Assembly (NCBI RefSeq): GCF_000829235.1
Contig: NZ_AP012549.1
Coordinates: 173,397 to 205,396 of the forward strand
Reading direction: 5' to 3'
DNA: 32,000 bases
From: a cyanobacterium endosymbiont of Epithemia turgida isolate EtSB Lake Yunoko
GTDB lineage: Bacteria > Cyanobacteriota > Cyanobacteriia > Cyanobacteriales > Microcystaceae
Shown piece by piece: positions 19,097 through 23,200 of the stretch. The translations under genes and the position numbers were made by a program. Numbering within the stretch: the stretch's first letter is position 1; every line of letters starts with the position of its first letter. The notes under the pieces are model-generated. The model was not told the DNA's origin. It ran no database searches and was given only the letters and a program-made list of their open reading frames with translations.

Positions 19097-20596
19097 ATCT
19101 AGTTAGATGTTAAAATTTAAGTAAGTATCACCATATAATAACACTCGGATTTATAAACGGCTTTACTCTGACTTAATCTGGGATAATTAGGATCCTTTCT
19201 GAGAACTAATCATCAATAATCCTATAAAAATCAGTTATTTTAAAGATAAGTTAAAAAAAATAAACATCTGACTCATCGGGTAAAAATTATTACTATCATT
19301 GGTTCTGTAGGCAATTTTTAAACAAATAGTTAATGACCGAATAAATGTAACGAGGTTTAACTTTTTACCTGTAAGCAATGAAACTCGCACTTTTATGAGA
19401 TCTCTATTATGTGATCTTTTCTGAAAGATTGGAAACTTCTATCAATTTACTATTAATACTTACAGTGTCTCAAAATTCAGGTGTAACAAATTTTGGTGGA
19501 TAAATTCTCTTCGACCAAGAGAAGTTATTCCCTCTTGTTGATAAATAAAGTAATCAAGCGAATACCGCCTTAATTACTTTGAACTTATGGTCAAAATCTT
19601 GCTATTCAATCAAATATTAAGGTTAATATTTAAAGAAATTCAAAAACAGTGGGTTATCTACAAAATTGCTGAAAAAACTAACCTATTAAATCTTGATTCA
19701 TGTATTATTTCCATAATAGACCGAGACAAAAAAGAGTTTAGATTCAACTTATTTTAATAAATTCACTTATCATCTCTAAATTTTACTGAAAATAAATAAT
19801 ATTTGTATATTAACGAAATTGAATTAGTGTTTCGATTATTACAAAAATCAAGAAACACTAATCAGTAAATAATTTTAGAATAGATTATAGAAGACTATGA
19901 TAGTGTTATATTGACAAGGAGAGATTTAGGAGTAAAAATAATTTATTAACTAATTCCCGTGCTAAAAAAATAGACTGTTCAGTTATGTAATTATAAAAGA
20001 ATGCCCGCCATTACCGCTACCTAAATACTAGACAGCACATTTCATAACTTCTATCGGACTCGTGCTTAAACTATTAATTTTGCTGATGTTAAAGACTGTA
20101 TCATTTTCACTAAAGTGGTAAAAATTCTAGCTGCAATTACCCTCTTTGAAAGGTATTAAATTTTTTAAGACACTTCTCTAGACAAGATTAATGATACCGA
20201 AGCCTAAAATTGCGCTCTTATTATTTTCAATAAATCTTCAACTTACGGCATACCGTCACCCTTACAGGATAAAATAATCCCTTTTTATTAGTTTTAAGAA
20301 ATTATCTTCATTGGTCCATAATTATTATTATTTTCTATGAAAAAGTTTATTAACGTCTTGATTTGATTTAGGAACTGATTTTTGCTTAATTAAAGAGGAG
20401 GTATATTTTTTTACAATATTAGTTAGTCAAACAAACTTAAATTTATTTTATTTGAGACAATTTAACTTTAAACCAGGAAAGCTAGAATAGCTTTTACATT
20501 TTAGTAATACTATTAATTAATAAGTAAAACAATAAATAAGATTAAATAAATCTAAAACATTAAAATGATTAAAAAGAGCAAATACGCCAATGTTTC

Positions 20597-20809
20597 TGAG
20601 AATCAATTCTTAAGTTTTCTTGATACAAATAACCGTATTAGGTGTATAAAGATGTTCTCTAAAAGTTTAGTTACCAATCGAGCTAAAAATCAATAAAAAT
20701 AGGGTATGTATTCAACTAAGGAACTCGATAAAAGTTTTCAATCTCTACTTTTCATCAACTCTCTAATATTCGATATTAATTTATTGAAGAATTTTAATGT
20801 CTAATGTTT
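20597..20809 (-). pseudogene. Degenerate tandem duplicate of the last ~70 codons of hemH
   Basis: Nucleotide similarity to 20810-21022 is visible by eye at an offset of 212-215 nt. One example is TTTAGTTACCAATCGAGCTAAAAATCAATAAAAATAGGGT against TTTAGTCACCAGTCGAGCTAAAGAATCAATAAAAATAGGGT. The minus-strand translation is riddled with stops and shifts: TLKFFNKLISNIRELMKSRD*KLLSSSLVEYIPYFY*FLARLVTKLLENIF... The intact copy reads [50 protein letters not shown]... Confidence 0.75.
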
Positions 20810-21838
20810 TTAGGGACAAATTTTTATTTTTTTTAAACGAATAACTGTATCAAAAGTACAAGGAGGTTCTTTAAGAGATTTAGTCACCAGTCGAGCTAAA
20901 GAATCAATAAAAATAGGGTGGGTATTTAACGCAGGCACTCGATAAAAGTTTTTAATCCCTGCTTTTTTAGCAATTTCTCGATATTCAATATCAATTTCTT
21001 GAAGAGTTTCAATATGTTCTGAAACAAAACTGATAGGAACTACTAATAAGTCTTTGACTCCTTTTTTCCCTAATTCTTTTAAAGAATCTTCTGTGTAAGG
21101 TTTGAGCCATTCTATCGGACCAACTCGACTTTGATAAGCCAGAGTGAAATCATTTGGCCGATTGAGGGTTTTCATGATTAAGTGAGTACAAGCTTCAATT
21201 TCTGCTTGATAGGGATCTCCGGCTTTGTCAACATAACTTTGAGGGACTCCATGAGCACTGAAGAAAATATGGATATGACAAGGATTTTCACATTTATCTA
21301 ATTCTTGAGTAATTAAATCGGCCATCGCTGTTAAATAATCAGGATGATCATACCATGAGGCAATCAAAGTATAGTTAATTTGTGTAAGATTACTATCAGA
21401 TTGCCACATTTTTTCAAGCACTTGAAAGCTGGATCCACTGGTGCTGATGGAATATTGAGGATACAAAGGAAAAATGACTAAACGCTCTATTCTGTCTCGT
21501 TTGATGTGATTGATTGCCTCTTCAGTAAAGGGGTGCCAATAACGCATCCCAATATAAATTTGAGCATCTTGACCAATTTCTGCTAATTTTTTCCCGAGAG
21601 CTTTTCCTTGAGCTTCAGTAATTCTTCTCAAAGGGGAACCTCCTCCAATTTTTTCATAATTTTTCTTAGATTTTTCACTTCTTAGTAGAGAAATTAACCA
21701 AGCTAAGGGCTTTTGTAACCAAGGGAAAGGTAATCGAATGATTTCTGGGTCAGAAAATAGATTGAACAAAAAGGGGCGAACATCTTGTAACTGTTCCGGA
21801 CCCCCTAAATTTAGTAATAAAACCCCGACGCGATCCAT
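20810..21838 (-). CDS. hemH: Ferrochelatase (catalytic core only; no C-terminal CAB helix)
   Basis: The conserved start is [38 protein letters not shown]. The motifs [17 protein letters not shown] and [18 protein letters not shown] are present. The start is placed at the ATG at 21838, because the 45 upstream codons of the tracked ORF have no ferrochelatase counterpart. This gives 342 aa ending ...[20 protein letters not shown]. Confidence 0.9.
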
Positions 21839-21965
21839 AATTTTATGTAGATAAATAACATTTTCGGATTCTTTGTTAAGTTTAACAATATATAGGCTCA
21901 ATATTGAGATTTCAATGACAAAATATTCATAATCTAGTGAGTTACATAAGTTAGGGGGTAACGAG

Positions 21966-22599
21966 TTGGTCACAATTTTAAAGACCTGGAGTCATCAATA
22001 TTCTTGGTTGCATAACACTATTTCCCGTTTAGTATCCCTAAGTGTCGAAGGTGAAAGGAAGTTTTTTTACCTTACCATTGAAAATGTTCCTCTGAAGTCT
22101 GATACTAAGATTTTAGATTTATGTTATGGCGGAGGTAAAGCCACTAACTTTTTTTCTACTAAAACAACCAGACTTAACGTTTTATTAACTCCTCTTTATC
22201 AAACAGTTAAAGCAGTTTTTGAGGCTAATTATTTTGGCGAGCGAGCTAAACAAATGCCTTTTGCTCAATTTAAATTTGGTTGAGTTAATACCAGATTTGC
22301 TTTTATTGTTCTCCACAAAATGTAAGCCAAGCAGCTTGAAGAAATTTTTAAAAGTTTATCAGGTTCTTAACACTGAAAGTTTTGTTGCTGTAACTGACTT
22401 ACATAAGCCGACTAACCGTTTCGTTTATTTTGTCCATCTCTAACTATTTTTATATGAATAGTGAATATTTGAAATGAAGACAGCCTAAAAGTTACTCAAC
22501 ACTTACTTAGTGACAAAGTTAACTTCAGTAGTTTTTCGAGCTTATCAACAACGACTTTATGGAGGAGGAAGTTTGCAAGTAATTCAAGTTAAGAAATAA
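21966..22599 (+). pseudogene. Class-I SAM-dependent methyltransferase pseudogene (in-frame stops plus frameshift)
   Basis: Fragment 1 (21966-22283) contains [20 protein letters not shown] and a degraded motif I, ILDLCYGGGKATNF. The same frame continues through stops: MPFAQFKFG*VNTRFAFIVLHKM*AKQLEEIF. Similarity then moves to another frame, KKFLKVYQVLNTESFVAVTDLHKPTN (a degraded RVLKPGG-type motif). A third frame ends QQRLYGGGSLQVIQVKK* at 22599. Confidence 0.65.
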
Positions 22600-22642
22600 G
22601 ATTGAAAATGATCCCTCCATTATCATTGAGGTAAATAAACGA

Positions 22643-23200
22643 ATGTCCAAGACCAAATTACTACAACCTGATTTAGTTTTGGGAGATACTATTCTCGGTC
22701 TAACACCAGAAATTCTTACCTATTATCACATTCAAGGATTAGTCTTGGATGTAGACGAAACTTTGGTTTCCCTCCAACAGAGCCAAGTGTCCCAAGAACT
22801 TGAGCAATGGATAAAAACTATTAGACAAATCACTCCCATTTGGCTAGTTAGTAATAATTTAAGTGAAGGTCGCATTAAGAGAATTGCTAATACTTTAACC
22901 TTGCCTTATCTATTAAGAGCGGTAAAGCCTTCTCGACGCAAATTACGGCAGGCTGTCCAGGCAATGCAACTCCCAGTTAATGGTGTAGCTATGGTAGGTG
23001 ATCGCTTATTTACTGATGTTTTAGCTGGTAATCGTTTAGGAATGTTTACCATCCTCGTCAAGCCTATAGCAGATACTGCTGTAGTTGATCGCTACTACCC
23101 AATTCACAATTTCGAAATCTGGCTGTCTCAAATTTTGGGGGTATCTCTGATAGTCCCAAAATTTGAATTTACTAAAAACGATCAATCTTTAAAACACTAG
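22643..23200 (+). CDS. YqeG-family HAD-IIIA phosphatase
   Basis: The ORF is 185 aa. HAD motif I is GLVLDVDETLV, motif II is WLVSNN, and motif IV is MVGDRLFTDVLAGNRLGMFTILVKP. Confidence 0.8.
   Translation: MSKTKLLQPDLVLGDTILGLTPEILTYYHIQGLVLDVDETLVSLQQSQVSQELEQWIKTIRQITPIWLVSNNLSEGRIKRIANTLTLPYLLRAVKPSRRKLRQAVQAMQLPVNGVAMVGDRLFTDVLAGNRLGMFTILVKPIADTAVVDRYYPIHNFEIWLSQILGVSLIVPKFEFTKNDQSLKH

Follow-up and report, generated by a model that had tools for sequence, protein, structure and literature searches.

The window analysed here comprises 32,000 nucleotides (nt; 31% GC) of the genome of the cyanobacterial endosymbiont of the diatom Epithemia turgida (isolate EtSB Lake Yunoko; contig NZ_AP012549.1, positions 173,397 to 205,396 of the forward strand), and its subject is the 3′ end of the ferrochelatase gene hemH, which is repeated directly downstream of the gene (Table 1). 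Such endosymbionts, known as spheroid bodies (SB) or diazoplasts, are non-photosynthetic, nitrogen-fixing cyanobacteria of rhopalodiacean diatoms, and the window represents the Epithemia sensu stricto clade.

The HemH protein of the window has the same sequence as BAP17015.1 (E. turgida SB) and XLQ10891.1 (E. adnata SB), each annotated as 'ferrochelatase', and contains a complete catalytic domain (Pfam PF00762, E=1.2e-121, residues 3–320, profile positions 2–316 of 317) and most of the linker (region II). In free-living relatives the enzyme has 386–387 amino acids (aa), of which the ~40 at the C-terminus make up the chlorophyll a/b-binding (CAB) helix. The last residue of the window protein is Pro-342, which corresponds to position 345 in the enzyme of 387 aa, and a CAB transmembrane helix with its ExxNGR motif was found neither in the protein nor, by profile and pairwise tests, as CAB-coding DNA downstream. 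The distal linker is also altered (RLKK-IKICP before the stop, versus HPKKNMKMYPQERW), with one codon-length (3-nt) deletion and loss of the final residues. As far as sequence comparison can tell, HemH of the window is a truncated derivative of type II ferrochelatase and not a full member of that type.

Table 1. Coordinates of hemH and of the repeated 3′ region in the window (slash, boundary between the copies)
Feature	Position	Strand	Description
hemH coding sequence	20810..21838	minus	342 aa plus TAA; ATG 21836-21838, stop TAA 20810-20812
GAACAT hexamer	21014..21019	minus	5′ edge of the unit
Copy 1	20803..21017	minus	215 nt (ancestral 218); in-frame functional hemH 3′ end, begins HIETLQEID
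Termination region	20801..20812	minus	TAA 20810-20812, AAA CAT, then TAG 20801-20803 across the junction 20803/20802
Copy 2	20589..20802	minus	214 nt; apparently a decaying non-coding relic
Post-unit stretch	20469..20588	minus	GGCGTATTTGCTCTTTTTAATC...; proposed downstream side of an older CAB deletion, apparently not CAB-derived

Tandem duplication of the hemH 3′ end

Local alignment of the hemH 3′ end with the adjoining downstream DNA gave a score of 175, against 20.8 ± 2.8 for 500 shuffles, which confirmed the head-to-tail duplication that the initial annotation had recognised by eye. The core of the alignment pairs 20819–21013 with 20605–20798, and a repeat search returned blocks of 68 and 22 nt at a spacing of 213–214 nt, while Tandem Repeats Finder did not report a repeat in this region, as expected for two copies that are <80% identical. 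The copy boundaries were set by alignment with unduplicated relatives, and show that the positions proposed at first (20810–21022 and 20597–20809) were in the right place, with edges that were 5–8 nt off. The duplicated segment represents the last ~65–70 codons of hemH, and the copies abut in the same orientation without a spacer. They are 77.7% identical over 211 aligned positions, within the range of three quarters to four fifths estimated by eye; copy 1 is 89% identical to the single copy of the 'E. clementina' SB (EcSB), and copy 2 79%. An assembly artefact is next to inconceivable as the source of the repeat, because the copies are only 75–86% identical depending on the lineage (differing at ~22% of positions in the window) and the same junction is present in four independent assemblies, one of which is a closed chromosome obtained from Illumina and Nanopore data; moreover, both copies have orthologous, diverged counterparts across species.

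The present stop codon had been ascribed to a frameshift at the junction, caused by a unit with a length that is not a multiple of 3. The ancestral unit is indeed 218 nt (218 mod 3 = 2), so that reading across the junction changes the frame, and this is visible in R. gibberula SB, where the hemH open reading frame (ORF) crosses the junction (...TQKHY/) and continues out of frame for ~30 codons. The stop codon of the window is instead a CAA to TAA nonsense substitution within copy 1, and not the product of a frameshift: EcSB, R. gibberula SB and free-living relatives have CAA at this codon, for the Gln of YPQEHW, and the TAA is located inside copy 1, 7 nt 5′ of the junction, in line with the earlier observation that the similarity starts within a few nt of the stop. 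A second in-frame stop codon, TAG, straddles the junction of the two copies, and a sister metagenome contig (P0001) has TGA at the codon homologous to the TAA. R. gibba SB alone has lost 13 nt from the linker part of copy 1 (gene positions ~1005–1025) and meets a stop shortly after the start of copy 2, and its protein thus ends in ...RPKKTPQNITY within copy 2, in the frame shifted by the 13-nt deletion. Region II, the distal linker, was not conserved in several of the freshwater lineages, although it is reported to be essential in Synechocystis.

At the other end of the gene, an in-frame GTG at 21973 opens a longer ORF on the minus strand (20810–21973), which with 387 aa equals the length of a full CAB-bearing ferrochelatase by coincidence. 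The resulting N-terminal extension of ~45 aa (21839–21973) is present in the JGI and Logan gene calls for P0001, P0002 and P0004, is lacking from free-living homologues, and is probably a spurious start call, which could hide the C-terminal truncation in length-based checks. For annotation purposes, hemH is rightly called intact, with the provisos that some gene callers add this spurious extension of 45 aa, and that HemH of R. gibberula SB bears an out-of-frame tail of ~30 aa.

Distribution among relatives and fate of the two copies

Nine further lineages were compared, obtained from a genome scan and from exact-protein look-ups; a metagenome contig scan did not yield spheroid-body relatives (best match 79%). 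The duplication is present with an identical junction in the window, P0001, R. gibba SB and R. gibberula SB, with the least decayed form of the junction reading ...AACATT/ACATATTGAAAC..., and is absent from EcSB, P0003 (freshwater), E. pelagica SB, P0005 (a marine-type SB) and Crocosphaera. The unit is 218 nt long in every single-copy genome, and the copies of R. gibberula SB measure 218 and 219 nt. Relative to the single-copy genomes, the duplicated genomes have exactly one extra unit, inserted at one and the same point.

The unit was ancestrally flanked by two GAACAT hexamers, with the second located 213 nt downstream of the first, at the 3′ edge, and this spacing is kept in all single-copy genomes; in the window the second hexamer has become AAACAT, at 20804–20809 and 20590–20595. 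Slippage between the hexamers predicts a unit of 213 nt, whereas the actual junction (CATT/ACAT) contains 5 extra nt (TACAT), giving the 218-nt unit, and simple slippage between the hexamers is therefore not a full explanation. The hexamers at both edges could also mark a hotspot at which the duplication arose repeatedly and independently, which would explain why copy 1 and copy 2 share lineage-specific states, and why their identity varies from lineage to lineage. We consider such recurrence highly improbable, as an identical, unusual junction is found in all four genomes, including the 5 nt unaccounted for by hexamer slippage, and slippage would have yielded an in-frame 213-nt unit, which was not observed. 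In addition, twelve derived states are specific to copy 2 and common to the copy 2 sequences of the different lineages, with all copy 1 sequences still ancestral at these positions; the duplication therefore has a single origin, and the copy 2 sequences are orthologous. As a rare genomic change, it could serve as a clade marker, although collapse of the repeat can erase it.

The two copies have evolved very differently since the duplication. When read in the ancestral frame, copy 2 of the window has 3 stops, 4 deleted nt and 13 changes at second codon positions, whereas copy 1 has 0 such changes, and the initial description of a distal copy full of stops and frameshifts was accurate. Across lineages, second-position changes relative to EcSB number 0–1 in copy 1 and 3–13 in copy 2, which also has stops and indels, and identity between lineages is 87–91% for copy 1, 72–75% for copy 2 and 59–68% for the flanking intergenic DNA. 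This pattern of substitution indicates purifying selection on copy 1 and none on copy 2, and with its stops, its frameshifts and its lost codon-position bias copy 2 has the properties of a non-functional gene relic.

Of the eleven lineage-specific changes in copy 1, six are mirrored only in copy 2 of the same lineage, where ~0.8 would be expected (binomial P~4e-5, from a small sample), which indicates that gene conversion between the copies probably took place after speciation. Recombination has gone further in P0004, which of all the lineages is closest to R. gibba SB (3.7% divergence) and has a single unit in its hemH tail (gene positions ~820–1040). This unit shows 42 consecutive diagnostic sites of the copy 1 type followed by ~20 of the copy 2 type, with one switch inside the shared TGCGGTTATT, and the P0004 protein ends in the copy-2-derived ...FDAVICYKKT, ~9 residues short of Trp-347. 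This R. gibba-like lineage has thus collapsed the duplication into a copy 1/copy 2 chimera by recombination. Both homologous recombination and gene conversion are seen to be still active in genomes that are noted for their structural stability.

Since copy 2 persists in three clades and evolves somewhat more slowly than the flanking intergenic DNA, it might be thought to be retained for a function, as a 3′ untranslated region or terminator element of hemH, as an antisense or small-ORF locus, or, given that conversion between the copies does occur, as a repair template for copy 1. This is very unlikely, as searches in or adjoining copy 2 gave no Rfam match and no terminator-like site, and promoter-like matches were at chance level; stops, indels and second-position changes are found in every lineage, and only trivial ORFs are present. 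Copy 2 is also dispensable, having been lost in P0004, while EcSB and P0003 are without it, and its slower decay can be attributed to conversion from copy 1 to copy 2.

Fate of the chlorophyll-binding domain

The initial annotation had proposed that the duplication severed the C-terminal domain, leaving the original 3′ end of the gene stranded behind copy 2. A CAB DNA profile, built from 75 CAB-coding sequences, matched the tails of all six freshwater genomes as far as the Trp-347 codon and no further, and the stretch beyond the unit (behind copy 2, or behind the single copy in EcSB and P0003) showed no similarity to the CAB DNA of marine-type SBs (z −1.7 to 1.3). The same stretch is homologous among all six freshwater genomes (z 2–20), including comparisons between unduplicated and duplicated genomes (z 4–12). 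It is hence common to genomes without the duplication and not derived from the CAB domain, and the proposal of a stranded 3′ end is not supported. Since copy 2 is still 76–84% identical to the single copy across genomes, a stranded CAB segment of the same age should be equally recognisable, and none of the sampled relatives showed the duplication together with CAB-coding DNA.

The sequence behind the Trp codon matches intergenic DNA located ~1.1 kb past the hemH stop in P0005, with z=8.4 for EcSB and z=7.8 for R. gibberula SB (blastn E=1e-5), and TGGC(A) is present at both edges; the post-unit stretch of the window itself is too decayed for a direct match (z=0.5). As CAB homology ends at Trp-347 in every freshwater genome, and the remainder represents distal intergenic DNA, loss of the CAB helix most likely goes back to a deletion that all freshwater lineages have in common, whether they are duplicated or not, and not to the duplication as had been supposed. 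P0005 has ~1.1 kb of extra DNA between its hemH stop (5664) and the freshwater-homologous stretch (~locus 6750), which is not present in the freshwater genomes, and apparently not in E. pelagica SB either. Depending on this extra DNA, the size of the ancestral CAB deletion is uncertain, within a range of 0.1–1.2 kb.

Two other interpretations of the post-unit stretch were considered and dropped. By eye it resembled the decayed remains of CAB DNA, shortened by ~30 nt and with 1 nt (TGGC-GTGG) deleted in common, a reading for which both the shuffle tests and the 75-sequence profile were negative. It could also represent the extreme 3′ end of hemH plus its flank, after a deletion of ~110 nt within the gene; here R. 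gibberula SB versus E. pelagica SB gave z=3.3 and the other comparisons were not significant, and the match to P0005 was stronger (z about 8).

The marine-type SBs keep a 387-aa ORF in which the CAB region (codons 347–387) is open, but its chlorophyll-binding motif is degraded: EVWNGRLAM has changed to EVWNTRLAI or AKIWNTRLV in E. pelagica SB and P0005, and to ADIWNAGLI in P0006. This erosion suggests that relaxed selection on the motif may have preceded the deletion, and hemH of the marine-type SBs looks like an intermediate stage ahead of the freshwater deletion.

The intergenic regions on either side of hemH may contain further traces of decay. The AT-rich spacer at 19097–20588 (GC 25–29%) aligns over its whole 1.5 kb to P0005 with ~67% identity, and contains at ~19959–20135, on the plus strand, a weak similarity at the protein level to a fragment of the pyruvate kinase barrel domain (PF00224) that is annotated in the syntenic spacer of P0005. 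The identity is 34% across 59 aa (E=3e-6, for a very small search space), and 19959–20135 is probably a decayed relic of a pyruvate kinase pseudogene. Upstream of hemH, an 800-nt spacer (21839–22642) separates the gene from a divergently transcribed HAD-family hydrolase gene (22643–23200) and contains only short ORFs, of 105 aa (21966–22283) and 74 aa (22219–22443), where the ORFs called in relatives are 41 and 89 aa long. No Pfam domain was found in the two ORFs tested in this spacer, which may be another decayed gene.

Order of events and comparison with known systems

We propose a two-step history, in which deletion of the CAB domain came first and the 218-bp duplication followed later, as the probable course of events. 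A deletion in the ancestor that all freshwater endosymbionts share would have extended from just after the Trp-347 codon into downstream intergenic DNA, removing the CAB helix, a domain that catalysis is known not to require and that was already eroding in marine endosymbionts. The breakpoint is shared by the freshwater genomes, and the order of the two events is inferred from the position of the single-copy EcSB as the earliest freshwater branch, by parsimony. This position was found in a 4.2-kb tree (86% bootstrap; quartet 149 versus 75/65 sites), and a published 398-gene tree likewise has the R. californica group, which includes the 'E. clementina' SB (renamed R. californica GazosCreek SB), as earliest freshwater clade (bioRxiv 10.64898/2026.03.19.712447).

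In the second step, the 218-bp segment, with the final ~65 codons of catalytic domain and linker and ending 2 nt before the deletion junction, would have been duplicated head-to-tail, in an ancestor common to the R. gibberula-like, R. gibba-like and Epithemia sensu stricto clades; parsimony places this after the split from E. clementina. As 218 is not a multiple of 3, translation leaving copy 1 enters copy 2 out of frame, which would have altered only a tail that was already meaningless, and for this reason the duplication could be tolerated and fixed by drift. Afterwards, copy 1 would have been held by purifying selection as the sole in-frame end of an essential gene, with copy 2 having no function and decaying as non-coding DNA, slowed by occasional gene conversion from copy 1. 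The end of the protein would then have come to differ by clade, through the nonsense substitution in E. turgida and E. adnata, the deletion and subsequent stop in R. gibba SB, and read-through in R. gibberula SB. The causal role given to the duplication in the initial annotation is therefore probably wrong, although its frameshift logic was right.

Several observations weigh against this history. The order of deletion and duplication depends on parsimony and is not airtight, and the characters within the unit that could have dated the duplication relative to the EcSB split gave two empty test sets. Collapse is demonstrably possible, as in P0004, so the single-copy state of EcSB and P0003 could be secondary; P0003 has a split placement in the 4.2-kb tree (49%/49%), grouping with the duplicated R. 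gibberula SB as its sister in 49% of bootstraps, in which case the duplication must have been lost once. The right breakpoint of the duplication (CATT/GG) is only 2–6 nt away from the junction of the CAB deletion (TGGC), as seen at 20803/20802 and 20588 of the window, in R. gibba SB and at two other loci, a coincidence that two independent events do not explain. The duplication junction also lacks clean microhomology, extending 5 nt beyond the flanking GAACAT repeats. Finally, only two of the six freshwater genomes show a strong match between the post-Trp stretch and P0005, the profile E-value is modest (0.03), and copy 2 is presumed to be neutral.

The proximity of the two breakpoints is an argument for a scenario in which the freshwater ancestor acquired the duplication either before the deletion or along with it, in one complex rearrangement, so that the repeat is a footprint of CAB loss. 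EcSB and P0003 would then have lost the duplication early, either by recombination between copies that were still identical, or by sorting of a duplicated/collapsed polymorphism during a rapid radiation. Such losses have a documented parallel in the recombination between copy 1 and copy 2 in P0004, incomplete lineage sorting and short internodes have been reported for these clades, the placement of P0003 is ambiguous, and no character within the unit contradicts it. We nevertheless consider this scenario unlikely, as it needs two extra losses or sorting across two nodes, EcSB keeps the ancestral KIYPQEHW tail with none of the copy-2-derived states, and no genome combines the duplication with a CAB domain. 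Even if the duplication did come first, the CAB DNA was removed by a deletion and not stranded by a frameshift. The narrower proposal of a single complex rearrangement (for example by template switching), with the single-copy freshwater lineages as early collapses similar to that of P0004, is a shade more doubtful again; if true, the repeat would be the visible remnant of the very event by which the chlorophyll-binding domain was lost.

Under the two-step history, the locus provides a dated, stepwise natural record of how an essential enzyme lost a domain once photosynthesis had been given up by a cyanobacterium, with the CAB domain intact in free-living relatives, eroded but open in marine-type endosymbionts, and cleanly deleted in freshwater endosymbionts. 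Once the domain was deleted, what remained of the tail would have been free to drift, by way of duplication, a nonsense mutation, read-through, a small deletion and collapse.

Tandem segmental duplications in bacteria such as Salmonella and E. coli are usually transient and unstable, and are lost by homologous recombination. The hemH duplication resembles these in its head-to-tail arrangement, its junction with little or no microhomology, its reversibility by recombination (P0004), and the conversion between its copies; it differs in being very small (218 bp), located within a gene, and fixed, having persisted in several host species. By now, copy 2 has diverged so far that the duplication is protected from collapse.

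With respect to the protein, type I plant ferrochelatase (FC1) and the ferrochelatases of non-photosynthetic bacteria have no CAB domain, either by ancestry or by ancient loss. The freshwater spheroid-body enzyme is similar in having only the catalytic domain, with haem supply uncoupled from chlorophyll synthesis, whereas its loss of the CAB domain is recent and traceable, from the intact gene of free-living relatives and the motif-eroded ORF of marine SBs to the deletion in freshwater SBs.

Spheroid bodies contain no chlorophyll, and the chlorophyll a pathway is dead in EtSB and dying in RgSB (PMC5638926), so loss of the chlorophyll-binding domain is to be expected. Their genomes show relaxed selection on photosynthesis and chlorophyll functions, many pseudogenes, low coding density, and stochastic, lineage-specific decay (Nakayama & Inagaki 2017, PMC5638926; bioRxiv 10.64898/2026.03.19.712447). 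The pseudogenes published for these genomes are described at the level of whole genes and hemH is not mentioned among them, whereas the case presented here appears to combine loss of a domain with a duplication inside a gene that has kept its function; we found no paper mentioning truncation or duplication of hemH in spheroid-body genomes.

The closest counterpart of the truncated enzyme is the engineered FeCh-Δ347 (ΔH347) version of the Synechocystis PCC 6803 ferrochelatase, which is soluble and active; the CAB domain is dispensable for catalysis, and is regulatory or involved in dimerisation, while the linker (about residues 324–346) is needed for activity (Sobotka et al. 2011; Storm et al. 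2013, PMC3563542). The window protein is truncated at essentially the same residue, with the catalytic domain (1–324) and most of the linker kept and the CAB helix from ~347 removed. In contrast to the engineered form, the truncation in the spheroid bodies arose naturally and has become fixed in a clade of non-photosynthetic endosymbionts, and probably came about by a genomic deletion followed by scrambling of the distal linker. As a natural counterpart of the laboratory Δ347 enzyme, it would support a role for the CAB domain in chlorophyll-linked regulation rather than in catalysis. The structure as a whole is a new example of known processes, namely tandem duplication, relic decay, conversion and collapse, and fits with the ordinary evolution of a reductive genome.

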